A DNA stretch of 32,000 bases from Horticoccus luteus (GCF_019464535.1 NZ_CP080507.1:2400001-2432000); one strand, 5' to 3'; shown: positions 4,158 to 25,837, numbered from the stretch's first letter. Translations and numbers: made by a program. Notes: generated from the letters alone by a model not told the origin.

Positions 4158-4251
4158 TGGCGGAGAGAGAGGGATTCGAACCCTCGGTAAGGATTTAAAC
4201 CCCTACAACGGTTTAGCAAACCGTCCCTTTCGGCCACTCAGGCATCTCTCC
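4158..4251 (-). tRNA. tRNA-Ser (anticodon GCU), class II with long variable arm, CCA encoded
   Basis: The reverse complement reads GGAGAGA-TG-CCTGAGTGGCCGAAAGGG-ACGGT-TTGCTAA-ACCGT-(GTAGGGGTTTAAATCCTTAC)-C-GAGGG-TTCGAAT-CCCTC-TCTCTCC-G-CCA. It has a 7-bp acceptor stem, a 5-bp anticodon stem with GCT in the loop, a 7-bp variable arm and a canonical T-loop. Confidence 0.93.
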
Positions 4252-4477: not shown

Positions 4478-5194
4478 GTGAGCACGTCGCATCCGGATAC
4501 CCCACCCTCCGCCCGTGTGCTCGTCGTCGAAGACGAGTTGCCGGTCCGGCAGTCTATTGTCGAAGCACTGACGCAGGAGGGTTGGCTCGTGATGGAAGCG
4601 GGGCGCGGGCGCGAGATGCTCCCGTTGCTTCGCGAACACGCCTTCGATCTCGTGGTGCTCGATTGGATGCTACCCGGACGCGACGGCTTGGAGTTGTTGC
4701 AACACGTCCGAGCGCGGGGTGCACAAACCCCCGTGCTGATGCTGACTCCCGCCGATGGCGTCGATGACCGTGTGATCGGCTTGGAGAGCGGCGCCGACGA
4801 CTGCCTGGACAAGCCGTTCGTGGTAGCTGAACTCATCGCGCGTTGCCGTGCTCTGCTGCGCCGGCCGTTGCTGAGCATGGGGGATTTTTTGCAGTGCGGA
4901 GACCTGCAACTCGACACGCGGAGACGAGTGGCTTTCCGCGCCGGCGAGGAAATCTCACTTTCGCCCCGCGAGGCGGATTTGCTGGAATTTTTCCTGCGCT
5001 ACCAAGTACAGGTGGTAACACGCGAAATGCTGGAGCACGACGTGTGGAAAGCCTCGCGGCGCTTGACCTCTCTCGACAACGTCATCGACGTGCAAGTGAT
5101 GCGATTGCGGCGCAAAATTGACGGGGAATATCCTGTCAAACTGCTGCACACGGTTCGCGGTGTAGGCTACCGTCTTGCTGCGGACGCTCCATGA
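4478..5194 (+). CDS. OmpR/PhoB-family response regulator (REC + winged-helix); no adjacent kinase
   Basis: GTG start. The receiver has VLVVEDE, a phospho-Asp in LVVLDWMLPGRDG, and DKPF. The C-terminal trans_reg_C domain has LSPREADLLEFFLRY...VIDVQVMRLRRKI...TVRGVGYRL. Confidence 0.9.
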   Translation: MSTSHPDTPPSARVLVVEDELPVRQSIVEALTQEGWLVMEAGRGREMLPLLREHAFDLVVLDWMLPGRDGLELLQHVRARGAQTPVLMLTPADGVDDRVIGLESGADDCLDKPFVVAELIARCRALLRRPLLSMGDFLQCGDLQLDTRRRVAFRAGEEISLSPREADLLEFFLRYQVQVVTREMLEHDVWKASRRLTSLDNVIDVQVMRLRRKIDGEYPVKLLHTVRGVGYRLAADAP

Positions 5195-5322
5195 ATTCTC
5201 CCGTCGCAAAGGCGAAAGAGGGGCAATGATCGCCGGCCGTCCACTTGTCTTGCTTCCAAACCTGACAGAAAGGTAAGGGAGATAGCGTCGTGTGAAACAA
5301 GCATCTGGGCGATATTCCCTAG

Positions 5323-8300
5323 GTGTCTGAAGTGTGCCTTGGTTCGTCAGCGTCCCGCCGCCGTTGGCCGGTCGAAAAGCAGGTGCGAGAAAGTGCTCCC
5401 CGCTTCCGGCCGCATGCGATCGGGTTGAACGCGCTTCAACTCGCTCTCCGGGCCGCAACAATCGCGACAGTGTTCCTTGCGGCAACGCTGTGTCGGGCTG
5501 CCGAAACCAAGTGGCAGGACGGGAGTGGAAACTCCAACTGGACCAACAGCAACAATTGGACGAATGGAGTGCCGGGTTCGGGTGACAAGGCCACGTTCGA
5601 TCAAACCACTACCAAGTCCCCGAATATCAACTCCAACACGACGCTTGGCTCGTTGCAGTTTTCCGGCACCACCGACGCAGAAGCGTTCACGGGATCCCGC
5701 ACCCTCACCCTCAGTGGAGTGGCTGGCGTCGGCATAGATAATCAAGTCGCCCTGACGCAAACGTTCGCGAACAAATTCGCGTTGGACGCGAATCAGACGT
5801 GGCAGACGACCGCCGACGCCAGCGGCCTCGTCTTCAATGGCACGATCAATCTCGGCGGCTACGGGCTGACTCTTGCGCTCGCTTCCGCTTCCGGCGAATC
5901 GGCGACGATCGAAATCAATGCGAACATCGCGAGCACCGCGGGCGACCTCACGATTACGGGGAACGGCAGTGTTCTGCTCAGCGCCAAGGCCAATTACACC
6001 GGCACGACGACGATAGATTCCGGAGCGACCCTCGCGCTTTCCGGGAACGCCACTTTCAACAGCGCGGGCTCCCTTGTGCTGAACTCCGGCGGCACCCTCG
6101 AGATGAACGGTATCAGCGATATGGTTTCGAGTCTCGCAGGGGCCGGCGACCTTGAGTTGGGGGCCGGAAAATTGACCATCAATGGCACTACGTCGACCAG
6201 CTACTCCGGCCAAATTTCCGGCGTCGGCGGCAGCCTTGACAAGCGCGGCTCCAGCACCTTGACGCTGGCGGGCGACAACGCGTTCAGCGGCGGAGTGACT
6301 CTAAACAGCGGCATCCTGCAGATCGATTCGGATACGGCGCTGGGCACGGGCACGCTTGACCTCAGTGGAGGCACCCTGACGTCGACCGCCGATCGCTCGC
6401 TGGCCAACGATTTCGTGATGACCGGCGGGTCCACTATCGCGGCGCTGGCGGGCGTGGATTTCACATTCACCAGCGACAACATCTCGCCCGGAAGCGGCAG
6501 TCTGACTCTCACCAACGAGTCAGGCACCGGAATCGTTTCGGTCGGCTTTTCGGGCAGCGGCGCGACCTTCGATTTCGATCGCACTCTCACACTCAGCGAC
6601 AACACCGAGTTGAGATTTCTCAACGGAAGCGGCGTGCAGACGTTCTCGGGCACGATCGCGGGAACGGGCAACGTTATCCGCAATGCCGCCGGCGGGACCA
6701 CCGTGTTCGACTCCAACAACAACTTCACGGGCAGCCTCGAGTTGTTGGCGGGCACAGTCCAAATCTCCGCCGACAACCAACTCGGCGCCACGCCGGGCTC
6801 CCCGACGGCTGACCGCATTATATTTGACGGGGGCACCCTTGCGACGACTGACACGCTCACGGTGAACGCCAACCGCGGCATCACCTTGGCGGCGGGCGGC
6901 GGGACTTTTGATGTCGTTTCCGCGGGGGCCGATACGACCTACATGGGCGTGATCGCGGGCAGCGGAGACTTGAACAAAACCGGCGACGGGCTGCTTTACC
7001 TCGGCGGAGCGAACACCTTCTCGGGCGATATCGCCATCACCGCCGGCGGCTTGGTGGCCGAAAGCAACGCCGCGTTGGGACCGGGCGGAACGACGTCGGT
7101 AGGCAATGGAGCAACTTTGGCGGTAACCGGCGGAGTGACCATTAACTCTGAAACCAACATCACCTTGGAGGGGGATGGGGTGTCCGGCACTGATGGCGCC
7201 CTATATAGCATGGCGGGCACCAACGAAATCGATAGTCTCCTCACGTTGAGCGCGGACGCTCGCGTGGTCAGCGCCGCGGATAAATTAAGCCTGTCCGGCG
7301 GCATCGCTGGATCCGGAAATAATCTCCTCTTCGATGCCCAAGGCACCAGCGAAATTGCGGTGGACGGCGGCATCGCCACGGGCGCGGGCACGGTGACGAA
7401 AAACGACGCCGGCACGCTCACCTTCAGCGGCAGCAGTGCAAACACCTACACCGGCACGACCACGGTCAACGCCGGCACTCTCGTGCTGGCGAAGAGCGGC
7501 GCGGCCACCGCCATCGCCGGCAATCTTGTGATCGGCGACGGCACCGGCACCGACACCGTGCGACTTGACGCGGCGAACCAACTCGCGAGCACCTCGGCCG
7601 TCACATTCACCGCCGGCGGCACGCCCACGCTCAACCTCAACGGCTTCGCCCAAACGCTCGGTTCCATCGCCAGCACTAATTCCAGCGCGGTGATCGCTTT
7701 CGGTTCTCCCGGCGGCGCCACCGATTTCACGGTCGGCGACGCCACGAGCACGACCTACGCGGGCACCTTCACCAGCGGCAACGCCAACGGCCGCCTCGTC
7801 AAGGAAGGCGCGGGCGCGCTCACCCTGAGCGGCGCGAGCCCGGGCTTCACCGGCGCGGTGCTCGTCGACCAAGGCACGCTCAAAGTGCAAAACGTCAACG
7901 CGCTCGGCAGTGGCACCGCGGGCACTACCGTCGCTTCGGGCGCCACACTGCAATTGGACAGCGTGCTGGCTCCGTTCAACGGCACGCTCACGCTCTCCGG
8001 CACCGGGGTCAGCGGTGTCGGCGCGCTTTATGGCACTGGCGGCAACAACCGCTGGGAAAGCAACATCACCCTCGCCGGCGACGCCACGATCGGCACCAAC
8101 GCCACCGGCTACCTCGCCCTCGGCCTGACGACCACGCGCTACAACCGCGCGCTCTCCGACCCCAGCGGCACACCCACCGACCCGACGACGCTGAGTCTCG
8201 GCGCCAACACCCTCACGCTCACCGGCACCACCTCCGCCGCCAACCACATCGCCACCTATATCAACGCGCAAGTCACCGGCACCGGCAACCTCGTCATCGC

Positions 8301-10527
8301 GATGACCAACGCGACCGACACCGTGCGCATGACCAACAACTACAACCCCACCTTCACCGGCACCACGCAGATCAACAACGGCATCCTCAGCCTCGCCACC
8401 CTCTACAACACCTACCCCGCCGACCCCGCGCACCCGAACTTCTTCGCGATCAACGGCCCCGTCGTCATCGGCGACGGCACCGGCGCCGCCAACTCCGCGC
8501 AACTCACCATCCAGGCCAACACCTCGATCCTTTACGACGAGATGATGAACTACACCACGCCGATCACGCTCAAAAGCGACGGCCAGTTCAGCCTCCTCGC
8601 CGCGCAGACGATCGGCGCCCTCACCTTTAACGGCGGCAATATCGACCTCGGCACCACCGGCAGCCTCTTTCTCAACGACGACGTCACCGTCAACGCCTCC
8701 GCCGGCCACACCGCCACCATCACCGGCTCCGGCACCAGCGCCTTGAGCCTCACCATCCACCAAGGCCCCGTCCCGGTCCCCAACGCCACCCGCACCTTCA
8801 ACCTCGTCGGCGGCGCCGGCAACACCAGCGACCTCACCATCGGCGCCCTCATCTACAACGGCTCCATCGTGAAGACCGGCGCGGGCACGATGACCATCAC
8901 CTCCGATAATCACGCCGGCTACGAAGGCACCACCACCATCAACAACGGCACCCTCGCCATCACCAACAACAGCGCCCTGGGCCAGTCCGACGGCACCGAC
9001 ACCTCCGCCACCCTCGTCAACGGCAACGGCACCACCAACGGCACCCTGCAGCTCTCCAACAACATCACCGTCACCAACGAAAAACTCACGCTGAACAACA
9101 CCGGCTACGGCAATAACGGCGCTCTGCGCAACCTCTCCGGCAACAACACCTGGAACGGCGAAGTCGTCGTCAACGACGCCCGCACCCAGTCCGACGCCGG
9201 TCTGCTCACCCTCAACAACACCGTCACGATCAACACCGCGTTGGAAGTCACCGGTTCGGGCAACACCACGATCAGCGGCCCGGTCGGCGGCGCCACCGGC
9301 ACCCTCACCAAGAACGGCACCGGCACCCTCATCGTCTCCGGCACCAACACTTACGGCGGCGCCACCACGATCAACACCGGCGTCCTCAGCCTGCAAAGCA
9401 ACGCCGGCCTCGGCGCCGCCACCGGCGGCACCACCGTTTCCGGCAGCGGCGGCGCGCTCGAACTCAGCAACGCCGCACACGGCAACCTCACCACCAGCGC
9501 CGAACCCCTCGCCTTGAACGGCACCGGCATCAGCGGCAACGGCGCCCTGCGCAATGCCGCCGGCAACAACACCTTTGCCGGCCAAGTCACCCTGCAATCG
9601 GCCGCCCTCCTCACCGCCAACACCGGCACCACGCTCACCCTGAGCGGCGGCGTGACCAGCGCCAACCAGGCCGCCACCTTCGGCACCACCGCCAACAACG
9701 GCAACATCACCATTTCCGGCGTCACCAACCTCGGCACTGGCAGCCTTACCAAAGACGGCTCGGGCACCCTCGCGATCAACGGCACCGGCACCAACACCAC
9801 CGGTGCCGCGCACCTCAACGCCGGCACGATCTCGGTGGGCAGCGCGGCCACGCTCAAGACCGGCGCCTTCGACTCGGCCGTCAGCACGACGCTGATCATC
9901 GCCAGCGGCGGCACCGTCGTGTCAAATTACGCGAGTGGCAGCACGACGTTTTCGGGCGCGATCGACGGCACCGGCGGCGGCATCTTCCAGAAAGACGGCG
10001 CCGGCACGCTCGTCTTCGACCAAAGCTTCAACGCCGGCGTCGGCTCGCAACTGATCCTCAACGGCGGCACCCTGTCACTCGCCAGTGCCGCTCAAATCAC
10101 CTTCGGCAAGATCCACATCACCGCCGACACCGTCCTCGATTTTAACGGCACCGACGGCACCGTCCTCTCCTCCACCGACCTGGTGATCGACGCCGGCGTC
10201 CACATCACGGTCAACAACTGGAAAAGCACCGCGAACCAAGTCACGCAAAGCACCATCTGGTATGCGACCAACACGGTAAACACAGCGGCGCTTGGACCGA
10301 GCGACCACCTCGGCAACACGCCGCTCAACCAGATCACGTTCACCAATTACAACGGGATGACGACCACGTGGGTATCCGGCAACCACGACGGCTGGTTCAA
10401 CGAAGAAATCCGCCCCACGCCCGAACCCGCGACGTATGGCTTGTGCCTGATGTCCGCCGCCGCCGGCCTCCTGCTCTGGCAACGGCAACGCCGCCGTCAG
10501 CCCGACGTGGCGCGCCACGTCGCCTGA
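5323..10527 (+). CDS. Giant secreted protein with autotransporter-associated beta-strand repeats and a PEP-CTERM anchor (adhesin-like)
   Basis: 1734-aa ORF. The signal peptide is LNALQLALRAATIATVFLAATLCRAAE, so the true start may be the in-frame TTG at 5425 rather than the GTG at 5323. After it comes W.DGSGNSNWTNSNNW. At least eight recognisable units of the type L.K.G.GTLTLSG.NTY.G.TT.N.GTL.L are present. The sequence is Gly/Thr/Asn/Ala-rich throughout, and the C-terminus is PEP-CTERM. Confidence 0.85.
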   Translation: MSEVCLGSSASRRRWPVEKQVRESAPRFRPHAIGLNALQLALRAATIATVFLAATLCRAAETKWQDGSGNSNWTNSNNWTNGVPGSGDKATFDQTTTKSPNINSNTTLGSLQFSGTTDAEAFTGSRTLTLSGVAGVGIDNQVALTQTFANKFALDANQTWQTTADASGLVFNGTINLGGYGLTLALASASGESATIEINANIASTAGDLTITGNGSVLLSAKANYTGTTTIDSGATLALSGNATFNSAGSLVLNSGGTLEMNGISDMVSSLAGAGDLELGAGKLTINGTTSTSYSGQISGVGGSLDKRGSSTLTLAGDNAFSGGVTLNSGILQIDSDTALGTGTLDLSGGTLTSTADRSLANDFVMTGGSTIAALAGVDFTFTSDNISPGSGSLTLTNESGTGIVSVGFSGSGATFDFDRTLTLSDNTELRFLNGSGVQTFSGTIAGTGNVIRNAAGGTTVFDSNNNFTGSLELLAGTVQISADNQLGATPGSPTADRIIFDGGTLATTDTLTVNANRGITLAAGGGTFDVVSAGADTTYMGVIAGSGDLNKTGDGLLYLGGANTFSGDIAITAGGLVAESNAALGPGGTTSVGNGATLAVTGGVTINSETNITLEGDGVSGTDGALYSMAGTNEIDSLLTLSADARVVSAADKLSLSGGIAGSGNNLLFDAQGTSEIAVDGGIATGAGTVTKNDAGTLTFSGSSANTYTGTTTVNAGTLVLAKSGAATAIAGNLVIGDGTGTDTVRLDAANQLASTSAVTFTAGGTPTLNLNGFAQTLGSIASTNSSAVIAFGSPGGATDFTVGDATSTTYAGTFTSGNANGRLVKEGAGALTLSGASPGFTGAVLVDQGTLKVQNVNALGSGTAGTTVASGATLQLDSVLAPFNGTLTLSGTGVSGVGALYGTGGNNRWESNITLAGDATIGTNATGYLALGLTTTRYNRALSDPSGTPTDPTTLSLGANTLTLTGTTSAANHIATYINAQVTGTGNLVIAMTNATDTVRMTNNYNPTFTGTTQINNGILSLATLYNTYPADPAHPNFFAINGPVVIGDGTGAANSAQLTIQANTSILYDEMMNYTTPITLKSDGQFSLLAAQTIGALTFNGGNIDLGTTGSLFLNDDVTVNASAGHTATITGSGTSALSLTIHQGPVPVPNATRTFNLVGGAGNTSDLTIGALIYNGSIVKTGAGTMTITSDNHAGYEGTTTINNGTLAITNNSALGQSDGTDTSATLVNGNGTTNGTLQLSNNITVTNEKLTLNNTGYGNNGALRNLSGNNTWNGEVVVNDARTQSDAGLLTLNNTVTINTALEVTGSGNTTISGPVGGATGTLTKNGTGTLIVSGTNTYGGATTINTGVLSLQSNAGLGAATGGTTVSGSGGALELSNAAHGNLTTSAEPLALNGTGISGNGALRNAAGNNTFAGQVTLQSAALLTANTGTTLTLSGGVTSANQAATFGTTANNGNITISGVTNLGTGSLTKDGSGTLAINGTGTNTTGAAHLNAGTISVGSAATLKTGAFDSAVSTTLIIASGGTVVSNYASGSTTFSGAIDGTGGGIFQKDGAGTLVFDQSFNAGVGSQLILNGGTLSLASAAQITFGKIHITADTVLDFNGTDGTVLSSTDLVIDAGVHITVNNWKSTANQVTQSTIWYATNTVNTAALGPSDHLGNTPLNQITFTNYNGMTTTWVSGNHDGWFNEEIRPTPEPATYGLCLMSAAAGLLLWQRQRRRQPDVARHVA
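10414..10524 (+). other. PEP-CTERM sorting signal (domain within the giant protein)
   Basis: PTPEPATYGLCLMSAAAGLLLWQRQRRRQPDVARHVA contains the PEP motif (10420-10428), a hydrophobic helix and an Arg cluster. This is the canonical exosortase recognition architecture. Confidence 0.85.
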
Positions 10528-10603
10528 CGGAGAGGTTTCTAACGCCGATTCCTCCGCCGCCGGCGCGCTTGGATCACGAGCGGCGGCACGCCGAGCAGGA
10601 CGT

Positions 10604-10636
10604 AAAAAAAAGCGCGCCGTTTGAGGCGCGCTTTTG
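10604..10636. terminator. Bidirectional rho-independent terminator between convergent genes
   Basis: AAAAAAAAGCGCGCC-GTTTGA-GGCGCGCTTTT is a 9-bp GC-rich stem flanked by an A-tract on one side and a T-tract on the other. It sits between the giant gene stop (10527) and the ahcY stop (10660). Confidence 0.7.
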
Positions 10637-10659
10637 AGAATATTGGAAGCCGTATCCGC

Positions 10660-12087
10660 TCAGTAGCGGTAGTGCTCCGGTTTGTAAGGGCCGTCGACGG
10701 GCACGCCGAGATACTCGGCTTGCGCCGGCGTCAGCTTGGAAAGTTTCGCGCCGATCTTCTCCAAGTGCAGCCGCGCCACTTCTTCGTCCAGGTGTTTCGG
10801 CAGACGGTAAACCGCGACTTTATAGGTATCGCGATTTTGCCACAGCTCGATTTGAGCGAGCGTCTGGTTCGTGAAGCTGTTTGACATCACGAACGACGGG
10901 TGGCCCGTCGCGCAGCCGAGATTTACGAGGCGCCCTTCCGCCAGCAGGTAGATGCTGTTGCCACGGGGAAACGTATATAGATCGTATTGGGGCTTTACGT
11001 TGGTGCGCTTGGCATCCGACGTGTTGAGCCGATCCACTTGGATCTCGTTATCGAAGTGGCCAATATTGCAGACGATGGCCTGGTCTTTCATCGCGCGCAT
11101 GTGCTCGAGCGTGATGATGTCCTTGTTGCCCGTCGTGGTGACGTAGATATCCGCCGTGCCAAGCGTGCTCTCGATCGTGTTGACCTCAAAGCCTTCCATC
11201 GCCGCTTGCAACGCGTTGATCGGATCGATCTCGGTGACGATTACCCGCGCGCCAAAACCTTTGAGTGAATGCGCCGAGCCTTTGCCGACGTCGCCATAGC
11301 CACACACGCAGGCGACCTTGCCCGCGATCATCACATCGGTCGCGCGCTTCAGGCCGTCGGCAAGCGACTCGCGGCAGCCGTAGAGATTGTCGAATTTCGA
11401 TTTCGTGACGGAGTCGTTCACGTTGATCGCCGGCACCCGCAGCTTGCCCTTCTCGAGCATCTGGTAGAGACGGTGCACTCCGGTGGTGGTCTCCTCCGAA
11501 ACGCCACGCCATTCCTTGGCGAGCGTGGTCCATTTGAGGGGATCCTCCTGATGGACGCGCTTCAAAACGTTCTTGATCACCTGCTCTTCGTGAGAGCCCG
11601 AAGGGGTGTTCACCCAATCGCTGCCTTCTTCGAGTTCGCAGCCCTTGTGAATGAGGAGCGTCACATCGCCGCCGTCATCGACCACGAGTTGCGGCCCCTT
11701 GCCGCCGGGGAACGAAATCGCCCGCAATGTGAGATCCCAATATTCTTCCAGCGTCTCACCTTTCCACGCGAAGACCGGCACGCCGGAAGCCGCGATCGCC
11801 GCGGCGGCGTGATCCTGGGTGGAAAAAATATTGCAGGACGCCCAACGCACGTCGGCTCCGAGGGCGGTCAGCGTTTCGATCAAAACCGCGGTTTGGATCG
11901 TCATGTGCAATGACCCGGTGATGCGCACGCCGGCCAGCGGTTTGGCAGCGCCAAATTTTTTGCGCACCGCCATCAAGCCCGGCATTTCATGCTCGGCGAT
12001 GACGATTTCTTTGCGCCCCCAATCGGCGAGCGAAAGATCTTTGACGTGACAGTCGGTGAACGAGGAAGAGGGAGCGATATTGGCCAT
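10660..12087 (-). CDS. ahcY: Adenosylhomocysteinase (S-adenosyl-L-homocysteine hydrolase)
   Basis: ORF 10660..12156, trimmed to the ATG at 12087 ([37 protein letters not shown]...). Diagnostic AhcY blocks are present throughout, including the NAD-binding [10 protein letters not shown] and the C-terminal PEHYRY. Confidence 0.95.
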
Positions 12088-12098
12088 GGTGGTATGAA

Positions 12099-13322
<1,224 letters not shown>

Positions 13323-13453
13323 GGTGGTAAAGGATGAGACGAAAGGCCGTGCGGCGCGTCTGCAAGGTTAAATCAACATATTTCAATCGCCTGATACGAT
13401 GAAATCTCTGCTTCCTTTGCCCTCCGCACTTGCGCGCTCCTTCGCCGGCGGAA
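13323..13453. promoter_or_regulatory. Divergent promoter region (metK leftward, kinase operon rightward)
   Basis: This is the only non-coding stretch between the two divergent units. It contains a locally AT-rich core (GGTTAAATCAACATATTTCAATCGCCTGATACGATGAAATC). I could not call a convincing -35/-10 pair by eye. Confidence 0.4.
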
Positions 13454-14614
13454 ATGCTCCCGCCGGCCATGCAGAATTCCGCGGCGTCTTTGCCTCCCTT
13501 CGCCTTTGCCGGACGACGAATCCTCATCGTCGATGACGACCGCATGAACTTGCGCATCCTCGGCGGGATCCTGAAAGCCGATGGTTATACGTTGATCGAA
13601 GCCGCCACCGGCGAGCAGGCCATCGAGCTTTACGCCGCCGCGTCGCCGGACCTGGTGCTCCTCGACGTGATGATGCCCGGTATCAACGGCTTCGAAACCT
13701 GCCGAAAACTGCGCGAGACCTACCGATCCGATTGCGCGCCCATCATTTTCATCACCGCCAAGAGCGATTCCGACGATGTCGTCGAAGGCTTGGCGGCCGG
13801 CGGTGTCGATTATCTACCCAAGCCGTTTCAGGCCAAAGAGGTCCTCGCGCGCATCCGCACCCATCTTTTCAACCAGCAACTGATCGAAGAGCAGCGCAAC
13901 CTCGTTGAAGCCCTCAGCCGGGCCAATGCCGCCAAAAACCGCTTTCTGGGCATGGCGGCTCACGATTTGCGCAACCCACTCGCGTCGATCCGCGCCCTTG
14001 CGGAGTTTCTGCGCGATGGGACGTTTGGGCCGCTCAATCCCGAGCAACTCGACCTGATCAAAACCATCCACGAAGCCTCGCATTCGATGCTCGATCTCGT
14101 GAATGAGCTGCTCGACGTCGCCACGATTGAGGCCGGTGAGTTGAAAGTCTCGCTCGCTCCGCACGATCTCGTCGAAGTCGTGGGTAAATGCGTCGCGATG
14201 GAAAATCTCGCCGCCGCCCGCAAGAAGACGCAAATCGTCCCGCAGCATCCCGCCGCGGCCATGATCACGCAGATGGATTTGCCCAAAATCAAACAGGTCG
14301 TGGAAAACCTGCTGAGCAACGCCGTCAAATATTCGCCGCCCGGATCGACCGTGAGCGTCCAGTTTTATCGCACGGCCGATATGGTCGGCTTCGGCGTGAT
14401 CGACCAAGGCCCGGGGATTCCTGACGCCGAGCGCGACAAACTCTTCCAAGATTTCGGCCGTCTTTCCGCCCAACCGACGGGCGGCGAGAAAAGCACCGGC
14501 TTGGGCCTCGCCATTTGCCGAAAAATTGTCGACGCTCACCGCGGATCGATCACCGCGGCGAATCGCTCCGGTTCCGGCTGCGAATTCCGCGTTTCCCTCC
14601 CCCTTTCTCCATGA
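13454..14614 (+). CDS. Soluble hybrid histidine kinase: N-terminal receiver + HisKA + HATPase_c, no sensor domain
   Basis: The start is uncertain (TTG 13430, ATG 13454 or ATG 13469). The receiver has ILIVDDD, LLDVMMPG and LPKPF. A coiled linker follows, then the H-box FLGMAAHDLRNPL, N-box LLSNAVKYS, G1 DQGPGI and G2 GLGLAICR. No hydrophobic TM segment is present. Confidence 0.85.
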   Translation: MLPPAMQNSAASLPPFAFAGRRILIVDDDRMNLRILGGILKADGYTLIEAATGEQAIELYAAASPDLVLLDVMMPGINGFETCRKLRETYRSDCAPIIFITAKSDSDDVVEGLAAGGVDYLPKPFQAKEVLARIRTHLFNQQLIEEQRNLVEALSRANAAKNRFLGMAAHDLRNPLASIRALAEFLRDGTFGPLNPEQLDLIKTIHEASHSMLDLVNELLDVATIEAGELKVSLAPHDLVEVVGKCVAMENLAAARKKTQIVPQHPAAAMITQMDLPKIKQVVENLLSNAVKYSPPGSTVSVQFYRTADMVGFGVIDQGPGIPDAERDKLFQDFGRLSAQPTGGEKSTGLGLAICRKIVDAHRGSITAANRSGSGCEFRVSLPLSP

Positions 14615-15009
14615 CCCTCCCCGGCCCCTTGCTGATCGTCGATGACGAGTCCCACGTCCGTAAATTTCTTCAAATTCTCGTTCGGCAGCTTGGCATCACT
14701 CATTGCCTCGAAGCCGCCAATGGCGAAGAGGCGTTGGAAATTTACGCGCGAGAGCGCCCCGCCGTGGTCCTGCTCGACATCAGCATGCCGGTGCTGGACG
14801 GCCTCGCCACGTTGCAACGCCTGCGTGAAATCGATCCCGACGCCATTGTGGTGATGCTCACCTCCATGACCAACCGCCAATCCGTCGAGGAAGCGCTGCG
14901 TCACGGCGCCGCCAACTACATTCGCAAGGACACGCCGAAGGAGGAGGTGATGACCGCCCTCCGTGAGACCTTGGAAGAATATTTTCCGTCTCAACCCTCC
15001 TCTCCATGA
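14611..15009 (+). CDS. Single-domain CheY-like response regulator
   Basis: ORF 14515..15009, trimmed to the ATG at 14611, which overlaps the kinase stop (ATGA). Receiver motifs are LLIVDDE, LLDISMPVLDG, VVMLTS and YIRKD. Confidence 0.9.
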   Translation: MTLPGPLLIVDDESHVRKFLQILVRQLGITHCLEAANGEEALEIYARERPAVVLLDISMPVLDGLATLQRLREIDPDAIVVMLTSMTNRQSVEEALRHGAANYIRKDTPKEEVMTALRETLEEYFPSQPSSP

Positions 15010-15191
15010 ACTCGCCCTCTCATCCGCCGGCCGCCATCACGGAAGTCCGCTATTCGCTGCCCGCGATGTTGGCGGAAATCCGGGCCGAACGCTCCGCCGG
15101 AGCCATGGCCATGGACAAACTGGAGCAGCAGGAAATCACCAAGTTGTTTAAGAGCCGCAATGCCCGCCGCCGTGCCAAACCCCAAAAGTAA
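15006..15191 (+). CDS. Hypothetical 61-aa protein with a basic C-terminus
   Basis: Its ATG overlaps the REC stop (ATGA at 15006-15009). Third codon positions are GC-rich, as in neighbouring genes. The other frame across this gap translates to Trp/Cys/Arg-rich nonsense. I recognise no family. Confidence 0.45.
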   Translation: MNSPSHPPAAITEVRYSLPAMLAEIRAERSAGAMAMDKLEQQEITKLFKSRNARRRAKPQK

Positions 15192-16878
15192 ACGGTTCGT
15201 GGACGAAGTGCGCAAACTGCGCGACTTCGATTCCCCGCAGGAACTCGCCCGGCTCGTCGAAATCCACGGGCTCACGCCGCAACTCGTCGACGCGCTGATC
15301 GAGCAGCGTCTCTTGCAAAAGGACGAGGCGTGCCGCGTCTGGGCCAACACCCTGGGACTGGCCTACGTTGATCCCTTTGCCTCCCTCATCACCGACGAGG
15401 CGATCGAGAAAATCCCGCAGGAGATTGCGCGCAAAACGCAGGCGATCGGTCTCTACGTGCTCAACGGCGTGCTCACGGTCGCGATGGCCGACCCCACGCA
15501 AGCCGATACAGTCAAACGCCTGAGTCAGATCGTGCAGATGCCCGTCAGCCCGGTCTTCGCGCTGCCGAAGGAAATCGAAGACGCCGTTTCCGTTTACTAC
15601 TCCACCGAAAAAAACGTCGAAGAAAGCCTCGCCGAGCTCGAGCGCTCCCAGGTTTTCGATCAGCCCGAGCAGGTGGGCAACAAGCTCACCCAACTCGCCG
15701 AATCGAACCAGCTCACGCGGCTGCTCGACGAAATCATCTACTACGCGCTCCGCGAACGCGCCACCGACGTCCACATCGAAGCGCAACAACACCTGTCGCG
15801 CATCCGCTTCCGCATCGATGGCCGTCTGCGCGAAATGCTCACGTTTTCGCGCAAACTCCATCGCGTCGTCATTTCGCGCATCAAGATCCTCTGCAATCTC
15901 AACATCGCCGAAACGCGTTTCCCCCAGGACGGCCGGTTTGCGATCCCGATCGGCACCCAGTCCGTGCAGTTTCGCGTGTCGACGATTCCGGCGCAGCACG
16001 GCGAGAAGGCTGTCATCCGCATCCTCGCCTCAACGAACAAACGCGCCATGTTGACGCTCGACCGGATGATGATCTCCGGTCCCGTGATCCAGCCCTTCAA
16101 GCGGCTCATCCAAAACCCCAACGGCATCATCTTCGTCACCGGCCCGACCGGCTCGGGCAAGACCACGACGCTTTACGCCGCGCTGAATGAGATCAACGCA
16201 CCGGGCGTGAACATTTCCACGATCGAAGACCCGATTGAAATCGAACTCGTCGGTGTCACGCAGACCCAGGTCAACTCGCACATCGATCTCAAGTTTGCCA
16301 CCGTGTTGCGCGCGCTTTTGCGGCAGGATCCGGACGTCATTCTCATCGGCGAAATCCGCGATTTGGAAACCGCCAACATCGCCACCGAAGCCGCCCTCAC
16401 CGGACACTTGGTTTTCGCGACCCTGCACACCAACAACGCCGCCCAAGCGGTCGTCCGCCTCCTCGAACTCGGCGTCAAACCCTACATGGTCGCGCCCTCG
16501 ATCATTGGCGTGCTCGCGCAACGCCTCGCCGCGCGCATCTGCGAAAACTGCAAAGAGTCGTATCAACCCTCTCGCGAGGTGTTGCTCCGCTATTTCGAAG
16601 AGGAAGGCTTGGAGGATGTCCCCTTCTATCGCGGACGTGGCTGCCCCGCGTGCCGGGGCACCGGTTACAAGGGCCGCGTCGCGTTTCACGAACTCGTGCT
16701 CATCACCGAAGAGATTCGCACCCTCATAGCCGAAGGCCGCAGCGCTGCCGATATCAACAAGGCGGCCGCCAAAGTCGGCTACCGTCCCCTGCGTTACGAT
16801 GGATTGAAGAAGGTGCTCATGGGTCTCACCACGATCGAAGAAATCGACGAAAACACGTCGTTCGAGTGGGCCACCTGA
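15160..16878 (+). CDS. PilB/GspE-family type II secretion / type IV pilus assembly ATPase
   Basis: T2SSE_N-like region (LGLAYVDPFASLITDEAIEKIPQEIARK...VLTVAMADPTQADTVKRL...PVFALPKEIEDAVSVYY), Walker A GPTGSGKTTT, Asp box/Walker B (ILIGEIRD), His box (LVFATLHTN) and tetracysteine CENC...CPACRGTGYKGR. An alternative GTG start at 15199 would remove the overlap with the 61-aa ORF. Confidence 0.9.
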   Translation: MPAAVPNPKSKRFVDEVRKLRDFDSPQELARLVEIHGLTPQLVDALIEQRLLQKDEACRVWANTLGLAYVDPFASLITDEAIEKIPQEIARKTQAIGLYVLNGVLTVAMADPTQADTVKRLSQIVQMPVSPVFALPKEIEDAVSVYYSTEKNVEESLAELERSQVFDQPEQVGNKLTQLAESNQLTRLLDEIIYYALRERATDVHIEAQQHLSRIRFRIDGRLREMLTFSRKLHRVVISRIKILCNLNIAETRFPQDGRFAIPIGTQSVQFRVSTIPAQHGEKAVIRILASTNKRAMLTLDRMMISGPVIQPFKRLIQNPNGIIFVTGPTGSGKTTTLYAALNEINAPGVNISTIEDPIEIELVGVTQTQVNSHIDLKFATVLRALLRQDPDVILIGEIRDLETANIATEAALTGHLVFATLHTNNAAQAVVRLLELGVKPYMVAPSIIGVLAQRLAARICENCKESYQPSREVLLRYFEEEGLEDVPFYRGRGCPACRGTGYKGRVAFHELVLITEEIRTLIAEGRSAADINKAAAKVGYRPLRYDGLKKVLMGLTTIEEIDENTSFEWAT

Positions 16879-16901
16879 CGCCGGCTTCCGCCTCTTTCCT
16901 C

Positions 16902-17261
16902 ATGGACACCACTGTCATTGACCCCGAGGCCATCGCCGGCCTCCGCGCGCTCAACCCCGACGACAACGACGAGTTTCTCCGCGAAATCGTGGGCATCTTC
17001 CTCGAAGACACTCCCGCGCGCATCGCCGAATTGGACCAATCCCTCGCCGACGCCGACACACCCCGTTTCGTCCGTGCAGCTCATAGTATCAAAGGGAGCT
17101 CCGCCAACCTTGGGGCCACCCAACTCCGCCATGCCGCCGAGCAACTGGAACGCCACGGGCGCGACCGCGGCCTCGCCGACACCGCGCCGCTGATCACGTC
17201 GATCAAATCCGAGTTCGCGCGCGCCCGCCAGGAACTCGCCGCGCTGGTGGGCAGCGCGTAG
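16902..17261 (+). CDS. Hpt (histidine phosphotransfer) domain protein
   Basis: ORF 16650..17261, trimmed to the ATG at 16902 (119 aa). The canonical Hpt site is RAAHSIKGSSANLGATQL, within a four-helix-bundle-like sequence. Confidence 0.85.
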   Translation: MDTTVIDPEAIAGLRALNPDDNDEFLREIVGIFLEDTPARIAELDQSLADADTPRFVRAAHSIKGSSANLGATQLRHAAEQLERHGRDRGLADTAPLITSIKSEFARARQELAALVGSA

Positions 17262-19397: not shown

Positions 19398-19994
19398 TCA
19401 TCGCGTGGCGTGAAACGCTGCCGCCAAAGCCACGATGAAGATCAGCCACAAGCTCACCGTGCGCAGCAGCGGCCAGCGCGCGAAATGCTCCAACGCATCC
19501 CCGGCCGCGTCGCTGATCGGACCGAGATCGATCGGCTGCGGCACCATGCTCGAAACCGACATATCCGGGCCGGCAATGATCTCCATGGTGGTGAGGGCCT
19601 GCGTCAATTCCGGGGGCACTTCGTCCGCGAGAAACACTTCCGGCCATCGCTCCGGCGCATTCGCCAGCAGCAACGCCAACCGGCCAGGGATGGCGGCGCC
19701 GCCATGGGACAATTCTCGTTCCGCGGCGAAACGCCGGAACCAACCTTCGATCGTCTCCTCCATCTCCTCCGCCGCGACGACCACCGGGTCGCGCGCGGGA
19801 TTACGTTCGTGGCGCAGCGCCGCCCGTTTGAGTATCTGCACCGCAAGCTGCGTCGCATACAGCCGGTTGTAGATGCGATGAGCGCGAAGATATTCTTCGA
19901 CGCGCGCATACGCCGCATTCCACGCCTCCATCGCGCCGGTCCGCGGGTGAAACGTTCGGCTCAGCTCGTTGAAATCGAAGACGGATGTGCTCAT
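19398..19994 (-). CDS. Hypothetical protein with a single C-terminal TM anchor
   Basis: 198 aa with an ATG start. The body is soluble and helical-looking, and the C-terminal hydrophobic helix is WPLLRTVSLWLIFIVALAAAFHATR. It lies between opgG and opgH on the same strand. I recognise no family. Confidence 0.6.
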   Translation of the reverse strand: MSTSVFDFNELSRTFHPRTGAMEAWNAAYARVEEYLRAHRIYNRLYATQLAVQILKRAALRHERNPARDPVVVAAEEMEETIEGWFRRFAAERELSHGGAAIPGRLALLLANAPERWPEVFLADEVPPELTQALTTMEIIAGPDMSVSSMVPQPIDLGPISDAAGDALEHFARWPLLRTVSLWLIFIVALAAAFHATR

Positions 19995-23093: not shown

Positions 23094-24476
23094 TTATTTC
23101 AGTTTGATGCGGAGCACCGCCGTCTCGCCCCCGCGGCTCACGAGCAGCACGAATTCCGCGCGCTCCGTCGAATGATCGATCGCGGTCAGACGCTTCACCG
23201 CGTCGGCAAAATCCTTCGCCGGTTCGCCGTCGATCTCTTTGATCCAGTCGTCGGGCCGCAGACCGGCGATGGCCGCGGGACTGTTTGGTTTGACGAAATT
23301 GGCGATCACGCCCGTCGCCCCGGCGAACGTCTCGTGGCGCACCACGGCATCGCCAAACACGAGCTCGCGCACGGTGAATCCAAACCGGTCGAAATAGTGG
23401 CGTTCCGCTTCGCGCATGAGTTTCGGTTCATCGACCAGCGTCGCCTTGATTTCCACGCGTTGCCCGTCGCGCAGCACGGTGATCGGCAGCACATCGCCGG
23501 GTTGATGCGCCGCGATCGCACGCTCCACGTAGCCGACCACGCCGCTCTGCGGCCGGAAGCGCGGGAGCGCGCGGCCATCCAGCGCGACAATCACGTCGCG
23601 CGGCTTCAGGCCGGCTTTTTCGGCCGGGCTGTTTTCGAGCACCTCACTCACCACAGCGGCGGATTGCTGATCGAGCTTCATGAACCGCGCGACTTCCGCA
23701 TCCAAAGGCTGCAGGCCGTATGCGCCGAGCCACGCGAGCGGCCGGCCGTAAATGTTCTTCGGCACGCGCAGAAAATAAGGCCGCGCCTCCGCCGCCACTT
23801 GAAACGCGCTGCTCTCCTCGATGTTGACCAACATGACCGGCTCGCCCGCCCGCTCCGTCCGCGAGAACTCCAAAAAACTCTGCCCGAAAGACGACAACGC
23901 GACTCCCACGAATTCGCCCGCCCGGTTGAACACCGGCAATCCCGGGCCCGCGATTTCCGTTTGCGCGATCGCGGTGCGTTGCGGCAGCGACTGCAGCAGT
24001 GCAACCCTGCCCGACAACAAATACGGCATGAAATCCTCGTCCTTGCCGCGGAGCGCGATTCCCCACACGTCGGCCCCGATCGAGGGTTCTACATCTTTGG
24101 CGGCATAAAAATTGGAAATCGGCACGAGCTTCGACCGCAGAGGCTCATCCACGCGCACGAAATGCCAGCCCGACACCGCATCCTGGCCGAGGTAATGCGC
24201 GGGCACGCTCACCGAATCGCCCGCCGCATAGGCTTTGAAATCCTTGTATTGGTCCAAACCAAACCGCGGATTGATCGCGGCAGACGGCAGCACGATCGTG
24301 CCCTCATCGTCGATCACGGTGCCATAAGCGGTGGTCGGTCGCCGATCGATATCCGTCTCGACCACGAACTCCACCGCCGCGACTGACTTCGTGCGCTCGG
24401 CCCACAGCGCCGAAAGGTCGCTCGCCTGCGCGGTCAAAACCGCCGCCAAGAAAAGAAGAAGTCCGCGAAGTCTCAT
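23094..24476 (-). CDS. HtrA-like periplasmic protein with two PDZ domains and a degenerate (inactive) protease domain
   Basis: It has a signal peptide and an N-terminal trypsin-fold-like region. The triad positions read LPSAAI (His lost), GWHFVRV (Asp lost) and IAGPGLPVF (Ser lost). The two PDZ domains are AVVSEVLENSPAEKAGLKPRDVIVALDG and GVIANFVKPNSPAAIAGLRPDDWIKEIDG. Confidence 0.8.
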   Translation of the reverse strand: MRLRGLLLFLAAVLTAQASDLSALWAERTKSVAAVEFVVETDIDRRPTTAYGTVIDDEGTIVLPSAAINPRFGLDQYKDFKAYAAGDSVSVPAHYLGQDAVSGWHFVRVDEPLRSKLVPISNFYAAKDVEPSIGADVWGIALRGKDEDFMPYLLSGRVALLQSLPQRTAIAQTEIAGPGLPVFNRAGEFVGVALSSFGQSFLEFSRTERAGEPVMLVNIEESSAFQVAAEARPYFLRVPKNIYGRPLAWLGAYGLQPLDAEVARFMKLDQQSAAVVSEVLENSPAEKAGLKPRDVIVALDGRALPRFRPQSGVVGYVERAIAAHQPGDVLPITVLRDGQRVEIKATLVDEPKLMREAERHYFDRFGFTVRELVFGDAVVRHETFAGATGVIANFVKPNSPAAIAGLRPDDWIKEIDGEPAKDFADAVKRLTAIDHSTERAEFVLLVSRGGETAVLRIKLK

Positions 24477-25834
24477 GGTTTTAAAATGAAGAGAAATACC
24501 TGACGCCCCCGGCGCACCTCGACAAGCGTCGGCTCCGGGTGCGCTGCAAACGCTGCGTGTTGCGTCTTCATCACTTCAAGGTCGGTGATCACCTGCTGAT
24601 TCACCTTCGCGATGATATCGCCGCGCTGAATGCCCGCCACGTCAGCCGGAAATCCCGGCTGCACGCCGATGACCAGCACGCCGTTATCGTCGGCGAGTTG
24701 ATTTTCCCGCGCGAACGTCCGGGAAACCTTGCGCACGCTCACTCCCCAGCGCTCAAACGCCCATTCCTCGCCCACGCGGCTTTCCAGTTTTTCAGTGGCG
24801 ATGGGATAATCGCGCGTCTCGGCCCCGCGCTTGATCCTGAGCGTCACTTTCGCTCCTAAAGGTTCGCTCGCGATCAAGTCTTGGATGGCCGGGAGTTGCT
24901 CCGGAAACCGCCCATCCACGGGGCGGCCGTTGATCGCCAGCAAAATGTCGCCTCCGCGCAGGCCCGCGCGCGCCGCTGGCGACCCCACATCGACACTGTT
25001 GACGAGCACGCCGGTGTTGAGCTGCAACGCGTAAAATCCCTCAAGGTCCCGCAGGGGTGCCGGCACGAGGCCGATGTAGCTCCGCGTGATCGCGCCATCG
25101 CGCAGCAGCGCCGCCAGCACCCGCTTCGCCGTGCTCGCGGGTATCGCGAACGCCAGATTATCCGCCCCGAGGTAGCCGCGCGAATTGATGCCGATCACGC
25201 GCCCGTCCTCCGTCACGAGCGGTCCGCCCGAGTTGCCCGGATTGATCGCCGCGTCCGTTTGCAACCACGTGTTAAACGCGCCCGTCTCGTAGCCGCGCAC
25301 GCCGCGGTTGTCCTGCAAATAGCGGTTGTTGTTGGAAATGATGCCGCGGGTCACGGTGCGCGCCAAACCATGCGGCGTGCCGACGGCGTAAACCGTCTCC
25401 CCCGGCACCAGCTTGTCGCTGTCGCCAAACTCGGCGCGCGAAAACGAAAGATGGCGGCGCTTCACGTCCGCCATGTCCAACCGCAGCACGGCGAGATCCG
25501 TCCAGTGGTCCCAGCCCACCAGCCGCGCGTTGACCCGCTCAAGGTTGGCCAGCGTGACGTTCACCTCGACGGCGCGGGGACTGACGACGTGGGCGTTGGT
25601 AAGGATCACCCCATCATCGGTCAAAATCACGCCGGAGCCGATGCTCGCAGAGAAGCGTTTTCCTCCCGCCTCGAACGCAATCTCCCGCACCTCGACGTTG
25701 ACGACTGCATCGAGCAAACGCGTAAAACCACGACTCGGCGCCGCCGCCCGCGCGCACGAAAGCATCGCCCCGAGGCCGAAGACGAGGGCGAAGATTGACC
25801 GGGAAATTGAAAAGTTCACAGTGGGCGGTTTCAC
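24473..25834 (-). CDS. HtrA/DegP-family serine protease with two PDZ domains
   Basis: ORF 24473..26701, trimmed. Candidate starts are GTG 25834 ([30 protein letters not shown]) or GTG 25819, and both give a signal peptide. The ATG at 25764 would not. The catalytic triad is intact ([23 protein letters not shown]). The two PDZ domains are [32 protein letters not shown] and [28 protein letters not shown]. Confidence 0.88.
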
Positions 25835-25837
25835 ACG

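Follow-up and report, generated by a model that had tools for sequence, protein, structure and literature searches.

We analyzed a 32,000-nucleotide stretch of DNA from Horticoccus luteus (Opitutaceae, Verrucomicrobiota; GCF_019464535.1, NZ_CP080507.1:2400001-2432000), referred to below as the window, in which five co-directional genes occupy positions 13454-17261. They encode a histidine kinase of REC-HisKA-HATPase architecture, a CheY-like REC protein, a protein of 61 amino acids (aa), a PilB/GspE-family ATPase and a histidine phosphotransfer (Hpt) protein. The five genes constitute one operon, which we interpret, at a probability of about 0.55, as a two-component-controlled motor module whose output is the PilB/GspE-type ATPase and not transcription. 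The structure of the genes and the domains of their products are intact, and the core of kinase, REC, small protein and ATPase is deeply conserved and tolerates rearrangement. An earlier sequence-only reading of the window had described these genes as a sensor-less relay coupled to an orphan ATPase, and we take up its claims where our data bear on them.

Conservation of the kinase-REC-small protein-ATPase core

The near absence of intergenic DNA among the five genes, pointed out in the sequence-only reading, was confirmed by the gene coordinates. The kinase and REC genes share an ATGA overlap (14611-14614), the REC gene and the small open reading frame (ORF) share a second one (15006-15009), and the Hpt gene begins 23 nt past the ATPase stop, all as that reading had stated. 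The overlaps at these junctions are of the translational-coupling type. However, the 32-nt overlap that it gave for the small ORF and the ATPase gene needs correction. The ATPase ORF is open from 15160 to 16878, with its first in-frame ATG at 15160. The database protein 100% identical to the ATPase (annotated 'GspE/PulE family protein') has 568 aa, essentially all close homologues share this length, with a start that corresponds to GTG 15172, and in Opitutus terrae the start codon at this site is likewise GTG. Because of these homologues, the start is most likely GTG 15172, which would make the overlap 20 nt.

Scanning species-representative genomes with a four-sequence alignment of the ATPase N-domain yielded 80 loci. 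Our close set consists of 74 loci with an ATPase at least 60% identical. All five genes are present in the same order in O. terrae and in an 8.9-Mb relative, and they recur in about 70 Opitutaceae genomes. Of the close loci, 72 of 74 have the kinase gene adjoining the REC gene, and in 56 of these 72 the kinase stop and REC start overlap by 4 nt. The 20-nt overlap of small ORF and ATPase gene is shared by 52 of the 57 relatives that could be scored. Among the 69 close loci with enough sequence, 67 have an Hpt gene no more than 900 nt downstream of the ATPase gene.

The core is also found in other surroundings. Kinase, REC, small ORF and ATPase lie amid unrelated genes (OprB porin, FeoB, sulfatase, ffh) in four loci (L034, L035, L072 and L074), and in Pelagicoccus, whose ATPase is 49% identical, the four-gene core is flanked by pfk on one side and, on the other, by a gene for a class II aminoacyl-tRNA synthetase (Pfam tRNA-synt_2b). 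The kinase gene is inverted in L005 (ATPase 50% identical), and in L007 and L008 (45-46%) REC, small ORF and ATPase are kept, in this order or with REC last. Down to 42% identity, ATPase relatives keep a REC gene and nearly always the small ORF and a kinase, and their flanks change completely. Because the core persists where the flanking genes differ, its linkage is evidently not accidental. This supports the earlier view of a relay dedicated to the ATPase, against which ATPase orthologs in ordinary secretion or pilus clusters without linked REC/Hpt genes had been named as the telling observation; the relatives down to 42% identity keep theirs.

In a neighbour-joining tree, relatives at 42-47% identity branch outside the Opitutales clade and still carry the module, with different inputs. 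In two loci (L091 and L092), the kinase is a periplasmic dCache kinase, and REC, a 54-aa ORF and the ATPase follow. L093 and L096 (metagenome-assembled genome, MAG, labelled Nitrospirae; beside tol-pal) have kinase, REC, small ORF and ATPase preceded by an ODP di-iron sensor protein, and L090 and L094 (Desulforhabdus-like genome) comprise ODP, kinase, REC and ATPase. The named relatives in this outer clade belong to Desulfobacterales, Syntrophales, Thermodesulfobacteriota, Nitrospirae and Gemmatimonadota. The module was checked in two of them and confirmed in both, namely the Desulforhabdus-like genome and the 'Nitrospirae' MAG, which are two lineages outside Verrucomicrobiota. Since the module is kept at 42-47% identity with dCache or ODP inputs, the conserved unit consists of the ATPase, a CheY-like REC and a kinase whose input can be exchanged, in most cases together with the small protein.

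These data also bear on the simplest objection, which is that a displaced pilus or type II secretion system (T2SS) ATPase gene happens to lie by an unrelated two-component system and that the 61-aa ORF is spurious. Spurious ORFs are plentiful in high-GC genomes, and type IV pilus genes are often scattered around the genome. However, the arrangement is kept at 42-50% ATPase identity, with other flanks and other kinase inputs and in two lineages beyond Verrucomicrobiota, and the small ORF is conserved at the protein level, with more than a thousand relatives (see below). Chance juxtaposition is refuted by these comparisons, in which the flanks changed and the core was kept, and we give it next to no credence.

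Two further observations were made on the scanned loci. The module of L094 and L096 and of two metagenomic loci without taxonomic assignment, L090 and L093, opens with a stand-alone ODP (oxygen-binding di-iron protein of metallo-beta-lactamase fold) followed by a sensor-less HisKA kinase, which suggests O2/NO gating of the ATPase in these loci. Module contigs also occur in oddly labelled MAGs, namely L080 ('Proteobacteria') and L061, L063 and L064 ('Akkermansia'). The latter three are probably mis-binned or mislabelled, since they match the Opitutaceae ATPase at 61-69% identity and also have ahcY-metK as a flank.

The phosphorelay and the small protein

Pfam matches in the kinase are Response_reg (2.9e-30, residues 23-135), HisKA (5.6e-20, 160-228) and HATPase_c (1.6e-26, 275-385). 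Since these three domains fill its 386 residues, the kinase has no transmembrane segment or sensor domain, in agreement with the sequence-only reading, and its N-terminal receiver is its only input module. The receiver Asp lies in LLDVMMP (13658-13678) and the H-box is AAHDLRNPL (13955-13981). The REC protein has its acceptor Asp in LLDISMP (14770-14790), its acidic pair in IVDDE, its switch Thr in MLTS and its aromatic/Lys residues in NYIRKD (14914-14931), and the phospho-His of the Hpt lies in HSIKGSSANLG (17082-17114). Every phospho-site motif quoted earlier was thus located, and Pfam matches and motif positions together gave the H-box His, the N and G boxes, the receiver signature DD-D-T-(Y/F)-K and the Hpt signature HxxKG. 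Pfam scans of the five products returned the expected families for four and none for the 61-aa protein.

The best NCBIfam match of the REC protein is the archaeal CheY family NF041367 (CheY_Halo), at 84.2 bits and below the 200-bit cutoff; its likeness to CheY is one of architecture only. Its beta5/alpha5 region (GAxNYIRKDTP) is kept in distant module members across the lineages sampled. Because it carries no effector domain and this region is conserved, we infer that the REC protein is the terminal output of the relay.

The Hpt, by comparison of the loci, is a lineage-specific fifth gene and less conserved than any other member. The modules of Pelagicoccus and of L034, L035, L069, L072 and L074 lack it, as do all looked-up non-Opitutales modules with readable downstream sequence. 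In Pelagicoccus, where no stand-alone Hpt is present, a PAS-HisKA-HATPase-REC-Hpt kinase is encoded 1.5 kb from the module, and in L069 a divergent PAS hybrid kinase without Hpt adjoins the module upstream. Because of these two neighbouring kinases, we favour an input role: the Hpt probably feeds the receiver of the kinase, and this receiver would take the place held in sister modules by dCache, ODP or PAS sensors. The sequence-only reading had seen no visible signal entry point in the relay. However, sister modules carry dCache, ODP and PAS-hybrid inputs where this kinase has its receiver, and the Hpt is the likely connector.

The same reading had proposed a Spo0F/Spo0B-style relay whose terminal acceptor is not encoded here. 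Phosphate would then pass from the kinase to REC and Hpt and on to a regulator elsewhere, and the ATPase would be merely co-transcribed or indirectly regulated. A kinase, a single REC and an Hpt with intact sites do fit a four-step relay, the Hpt is kept in nearly all close loci, and an OmpR-type regulator is encoded 9 kb upstream. However, the member on which such a relay depends is the one most often missing, whereas REC, the small protein and the ATPase remain linked, the first two being the invariant partners of the third. Since a single-domain REC stays beside the ATPase throughout, a REC that serves as output is the simpler reading, and we consider a Spo0-type relay unlikely.

The 61-aa protein consists of a variable Pro-rich N-terminus, a first motif (VRYSLPAMLAEIRAER, 15045-15092), a second motif (LEQQEITKLF, 15120-15149) and a basic tail. 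In the family alignment, the two conserved blocks read (V/L)(R/K)Y(S/D)LxxMLxE(I/L)xx(E/D) and L(D/S)Qx(E/D)IxK(L/M)(F/L). The protein has no match in Pfam or NCBIfam, and among PDB sequences the sole hit of its profile was a coiled coil at chance level (E about 1). A profile of seven members retrieved 1,256 database proteins at E<=1e-3, none of them with a Pfam domain, and family members range from 46 to 96 residues. The hidden Markov model of the family had a single match in each of 87 of 89 sources, in every case on the strand of the ATPase gene and directly upstream of it. A programmed frameshift fusing the small ORF to the ATPase was considered and rejected: the overlap differs among lineages, from -4 to -20 nt, and is +23 nt in L089, and both frames are conserved independently.

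AlphaFold2 predicted two helices in the small protein, at residues 18-32 and 41-56 (pLDDT 70, pTM 0.27), and this moderate-confidence model would fit a peptide that folds on its partners. The second helix (LxQxEIxKLF) resembles the N-terminal peptide of FliM, whose EIDAL(L) sequence is a documented docking site of phospho-CheY (PMC6946799, PMC9126983). A position-specific scoring matrix of the second motif, built from the small-protein family alone, scored residues 6-15 of E. coli FliM (LSQAEIDALL, read from NC_000913) at 13.9 bits, a value reached by 4e-6 of random 10-mers, and these residues form the top window of the 334-residue FliM, ahead by more than 11 bits. With a matrix made from type-1 Opitutaceae sequences alone, the same residues scored 9.7 bits (2.6e-5 of random 10-mers), and this matrix also recognised the motif in distant module members. 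We take the resemblance as a sequence-level indication of CheY docking and hypothesise that the small-protein family may act as an adaptor between phospho-REC and the ATPase. A more far-reaching proposal, which we put forward tentatively and with some doubt, is that these proteins of 46-96 residues form a new class of CheY effector, namely a free-standing FliM-N-like peptide that tethers phospho-REC to the ATPase N-domain and replaces control by cyclic di-GMP (c-di-GMP), and that the module is a widespread, hitherto unrecognised post-translational switch of type IV filament or T2SS motors.

The ATPase, its probable machine and a putative mechanism

The ATPase belongs to the PilB/GspE (T2SSE) superfamily, as the sequence-only reading had recognised from its Walker A motif and tetracysteine. 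Pfam reports T2SSE (PF00437) at 3.4e-122 and MshEN (PF05157) at 1.6e-15 over residues 65-151. The Walker A motif (16141-16167), Walker B/Asp box (16327-16362), His box (16417-16434) and tetracysteine (CENC, 16540-16551; CPAC, 16642-16653) are all present, and the catalytic motifs and zinc-binding tetracysteine are invariant across relatives. Scores against NCBIfam PilB (TIGR02538, 519.1 bits) and GspE (TIGR02533, 514.8 bits) fall below the respective cutoffs of 675.65 and 630.25. Its relatives in the PDB are PilF, PilB and GspE. The AlphaFold2 model (pLDDT 82) superposes on the PilB, PilF and GspE cores with TM-scores up to 0.92, normalised to the target, and the best structural match of the full-length model is T2SS GspE (PDB 4PHT). 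The N-terminus (about residues 1-150) was modelled as four helices and an MshEN-type alpha/beta subdomain, with pLDDT of about 83-93 over most of the domain and about 62 for the first ten residues; Pfam and AlphaFold2 agree on an MshEN fold there.

An MshEN-type domain recalls MshE and some PilB proteins, and the sequence-only reading had cited the binding of c-di-GMP by their N-domains as a precedent. The ATPase might likewise be controlled mainly by c-di-GMP, with the relay as an accessory. The Pfam match, the predicted four-helix N-terminal bundle and a weak alignment to the MshE N-domain (5HTL, E 0.016) would agree with this; the N-domains of PilF and PilB also align weakly. However, the binding motif, a tandem of 24-residue RLGxx(L/V/I)(L/V/I)xxG(L/V/I)(L/V/I)xxxxLxxxLxxQ units, was found in 0 of 85 module ATPases by strict or relaxed pattern within the first 120 residues, whereas a Myxococcus PilB sequence used as control matches both patterns. 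Control mainly by c-di-GMP is therefore very unlikely, and the cited precedent does not hold for this module. Because the motif is absent from these 85 ATPases, the N-domain is free to bind another ligand, for which the REC/small-protein pair is a plausible candidate.

No REC-ATPase fusion was found among the longer relatives (700-870 aa) scanned with Pfam; added MshEN copies were present in five and a TPR domain in one, and four N-terminal extensions had no Pfam match. Two kinds of unusual ATPase were noted among the relatives. About fifteen of the strongest ones (P0122-P0132 and others) have about 1,000 aa and two matched stretches each, and P0122, the sole one of these that was scanned with Pfam, carries two complete T2SSE domains in tandem, an unusual fused double motor. 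In addition, L088 (5899-7650), L094 (5593-7260) and L077 (831-2045) carry, a few kb upstream of the module, another and more distantly related ATPase gene of PilB/GspE type, at 37-41% identity where measured (L088 and L077), which hints at paired motors.

The connection to a filament machine comes from a paralogous module present in eight loci (L081-L088) of Opitutaceae genera such as Lacunisphaera and Oleiharenicola. It encodes a REC of 135 aa, a small protein of 65 aa and an ATPase of 574 aa at 46-48% identity, and this ATPase scores 497.7 bits against NCBIfam PilB. In L081 and L083, multi-PAS hybrid kinases precede the paralogue, the last of them overlapping the REC start. In the loci that extend far enough, a gene with a GspG/H-like prepilin motif lies directly 3' of the ATPase gene, followed by a gene for a 262-aa bitopic membrane protein; the latter has no known family and is possibly GspL/M-like. 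Two genes with prepilin motifs (XpsI/GspI-like and HpsC-like) and a DUF7305 protein with an N-terminal membrane helix come next, the whole set spanning 11744-15577 in L084, where paralogous module and set together occupy 9410-15577. The L069 locus, whose ATPase is 67% identical to that of H. luteus, combines kinase, REC, small ORF and ATPase with the first two genes of this paralogue set. Because pseudopilin-like genes directly follow the paralogous module and that of L069, gene order ties the module to a type IV filament or pseudopilus system, and the H. luteus ATPase probably drives a machine of pseudopilus type whose genes lie elsewhere in the genome.

Within the window itself, Pfam scans of the other ORFs revealed no GspF/PilC, pilin, secretin or prepilin peptidase, as the sequence-only reading had reported. 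A prepilin cleavage motif was absent from all frames of the window, as were homologues of the pseudopilin set of the paralogue, and the window thus contains no complete T2SS or type IV pilus (T4P) cluster of platform, pilins, peptidase and secretin with the ATPase. The term 'orphan' used for this ATPase consequently fits within the window, but it does not extend to the paralogous module and to L069, which are followed by pseudopilin genes.

The lack of a platform or pilin gene in the window would also suit an ATPase that acts as a signalling or regulatory protein, as Myxococcus PilB does in exopolysaccharide regulation, with a relay that tunes envelope polysaccharide. The opgGH genes and polysaccharide export genes lie nearby, several lineages have housekeeping or envelope genes next to the module (opgH in H. 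luteus, tol-pal in L096), and one report (PMC5544727) provides a precedent for PilB as a signalling intermediary. However, no variation was seen in the catalytic motifs or the zinc-binding tetracysteine, pseudopilin genes are physically linked to the paralogue and to the module of L069, and the flanks vary among lineages, so that the opgGH adjacency is lineage-specific synteny. We judge a purely signalling role improbable, and somewhat more so than a Spo0-type relay.

For the motor module that we favour, we propose the following putative mechanism. Phosphoryl groups from hybrid sensor kinases that lack an Hpt and are encoded elsewhere would pass to the Hpt and from there to the N-terminal receiver of the sensor-less kinase. 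The kinase would autophosphorylate on its H-box His and phosphorylate the translationally coupled REC, as their adjacency and intact sites suggest. Phospho-REC may then dock on the 61-aa protein through the FliM-N-like helix, and the other helix of the small protein, or the whole complex, could engage the MshEN-type N-domain of the ATPase, which lacks the c-di-GMP signature. Such engagement might switch the activity, assembly or recruitment of the ATPase. The ATPase would in turn power a T2SS- or T4P-like filament or pseudopilus machine, whose platform and pilin genes, judging from the paralogue, would lie elsewhere in the genome.

Several points weigh against this interpretation. The ahcY-metK ... 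opgH-opgG neighbourhood is syntenic in about 65 core Opitutaceae loci, and since the whole neighbourhood is syntenic, these loci are not independent evidence. The part list is equally compatible with a closed loop of kinase, REC, Hpt and kinase receiver, and equally with an Hpt that passes phosphate to another regulator. In a manual alignment, K119 and K122 of E. coli CheY, which contact FliM, are not conserved in the REC protein. The FliM-like motif spans just 10 residues, and FliM was chosen for comparison a priori from prior knowledge. The small protein is not obligatory, because it is missing from two ODP-type modules (L090 and L094). Additionally, neither the Pfam-annotated genes around the looked-up loci nor the scanned paralogue regions contained a GspF/PilC, secretin or prepilin peptidase, the roughly 80 scanned loci not having been screened for platform genes, and no platform or secretin gene lies within 10 kb of the paralogue loci. 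Because no platform, secretin or peptidase gene was detected near the inspected modules, the identity of the machine is inferred.

Locus layout, surroundings and relation to known systems

Table 1. Features of the H. luteus operon, in window coordinates.
Feature	Position	Strand	Basis and remarks
Presumed operon promoter region, 5' of the kinase gene and bounded by divergent metK (-, start 13322)	13323..13453		Gene layout; no sigma-70-like site in consensus scan
Cytoplasmic histidine kinase with N-terminal receiver	13454..14614	+	Pfam and motif positions; alternative in-frame TTG start at 13430
Single-domain CheY-like response regulator, 132 aa	14611..15009	+	Pfam Response_reg 3.5e-26
Conserved small protein, 61 aa, proposed adaptor	15006..15191	+	Annotated as hypothetical protein K0B96_10045
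PilB/GspE-family hexameric-type ATPase, 568 aa from GTG	15172..16878	+	Pfam T2SSE and MshEN; length from homologues
Stand-alone Hpt phosphotransfer protein, 119 aa	16902..17261	+	Pfam Hpt 5.4e-18

Upstream of the operon lie the divergent genes ahcY and metK, and the other genes of the window include opgH, opgG, a UDG-family protein gene, riboflavin synthase, PDZ/HtrA proteases and leuS, together with polysaccharide export genes. A consensus scan of the presumed promoter region gave no sigma-70-like site, and promoter and terminator scans of the operon gave counts not above those of shuffled sequence. Rfam and tRNA scans of the window detected no riboswitch or other RNA near the operon; a tRNA-Ser (GCT) at 4158-4251 (-) is the sole Rfam/ARAGORN match in the window, and Rfam detected no SAM riboswitch upstream of metK.

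Several neighbouring genes merit a record of their own. Between opgH and opgG, a 198-aa ORF (19398-19994, -) without a Pfam or NCBIfam match has an equally placed counterpart in O. terrae (L001, 14517-15113) and in L003, and because of this shared position it may be a member of the periplasmic-glucan operon. The OmpR/PhoB-type response regulator gene upstream of the module (4478-5194) has no adjoining kinase gene. Directly downstream of it, a 1,734-aa protein is encoded (4478-10527, +, together with the regulator) that carries autotransporter-type beta-strand repeats (TIGR02601, six matches) and ends in a PEP-CTERM-like sequence (TPEPATYGL...WQRQRRR). A mechanically called ORF for an HtrA-like protease (742 aa, 24473-26701, -) overlaps leuS (25838-28408, +) by about 860 nt. 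Its true start probably lies far downstream of the first TTG, because the orthologues in L001 and L003 have about 450 aa.

If the proposed module is real, it would connect an ordinary two-component kinase with the motor itself by a compact, self-contained route. The likely CheY-docking helix of the small protein could be tested with three purified proteins, and the natural exchange of inputs (dCache, ODP for O2/NO, PAS, or REC with Hpt) would indicate which signals gate the machine in each lineage. More than 1,000 small proteins now called 'hypothetical' would gain a family name and a context. The module would also offer a handle on the scattered type IV filament genes of Verrucomicrobiota, which are abundant polysaccharide degraders of soil and freshwater and for which secretion is ecologically central.

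Full-text literature searches returned no description of this arrangement or of the small protein, in line with the sequence-only reading, and searches for descriptions of Opitutaceae T2SS or T4P returned nothing relevant. A 2024 review of PilB cofactors makes no mention of an Hpt or a phosphorelay cassette. Control of pilus motors by response regulators is, in contrast, already known. In Pseudomonas, the Pil-Chp system (ChpA, PilG, PilH) likewise uses single-domain CheY-like regulators and Hpt domains to control the type IV pilus motor (PMC11656802). However, it relies on a chemosensory array with a methyl-accepting chemotaxis protein (MCP), CheW and a multi-Hpt CheA, acts largely through cAMP and polar recruitment, and has no operon with pilB, no REC-HisKA kinase and no small adaptor. 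In Synechocystis, the PATAN-CheY regulators PixG, PixE and PilG bind the pilus extension ATPase PilB1 (bioRxiv 10.1101/2021.06.11.447907; PMC11181946). We propose that the H. luteus module resembles these cyanobacterial Tax/Pix systems in that a phosphorylatable CheY-type receiver acts post-translationally on a PilB-type ATPase and not on DNA. Tax/Pix systems, however, employ a PATAN domain, CheA-type kinases and photoreceptor MCPs, and their regulators are not encoded with pilB, whereas the H. luteus module has a HisKA-type kinase, a REC without an extra domain and a separate 61-aa protein, all in one operon with the ATPase.

Other known systems share individual parts. The control of MshE and PilB by c-di-GMP and the PilB-PilZ-FimX complex also involve an MshEN-type N-domain of the ATPase and/or a small accessory protein, PilZ (PMC4624772, PMC6957770, PMC8389850), but our module lacks the c-di-GMP motif, its accessory protein bears no relation to PilZ and its input is phosphorylation. 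T2SS GspE, whose N1E domain interacts with GspL (PDB 4PHT), is the best structural match, and GspG/H/I-type pseudopilin-like genes follow the paralogue; the H. luteus ATPase, however, scores below the GspE equivalog cutoff, adjoins no GspF, GspL, GspC or GspD gene and has a two-component system attached. The most conserved helix of the small protein, L-D/S-Q-x-E/D-I-x-K-L-F, resembles LSQAEIDALL of flagellar FliM, although the Asp of EIDAL is usually Gly or Lys in the small-protein family. Moreover, the motif belongs to the flagellar switch protein in that case, whereas here it lies in a predicted free-standing protein beside a pilus-type ATPase.

The functionally nearest analogue of the combination of REC, small protein and ATPase is found in archaea, where CheY acts on the archaellum through the adaptor CheF (PMC9126983). 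Phosphorylated CheY there reaches a type IV filament motor, driven by an ATPase of the PilB/GspE superfamily, by way of a dedicated adaptor, as phospho-REC would in our module. CheF, unlike the small protein, is a large dimer with a PH domain; it binds ArlCDE, and its contact with CheY is close to the phosphorylation site. The two share no sequence relationship. Pil-Chp, PATAN-CheY and CheY-CheF each lack the whole operon combination. By our literature searches, the joining of a HisKA kinase, a plain REC, a mini-adaptor and an ATPase in one operon is undescribed, and the adaptor family is possibly new. If the more far-reaching adaptor proposal is correct, this operon would be a bacterial counterpart of the archaeal link from CheY through CheF to the archaellum.

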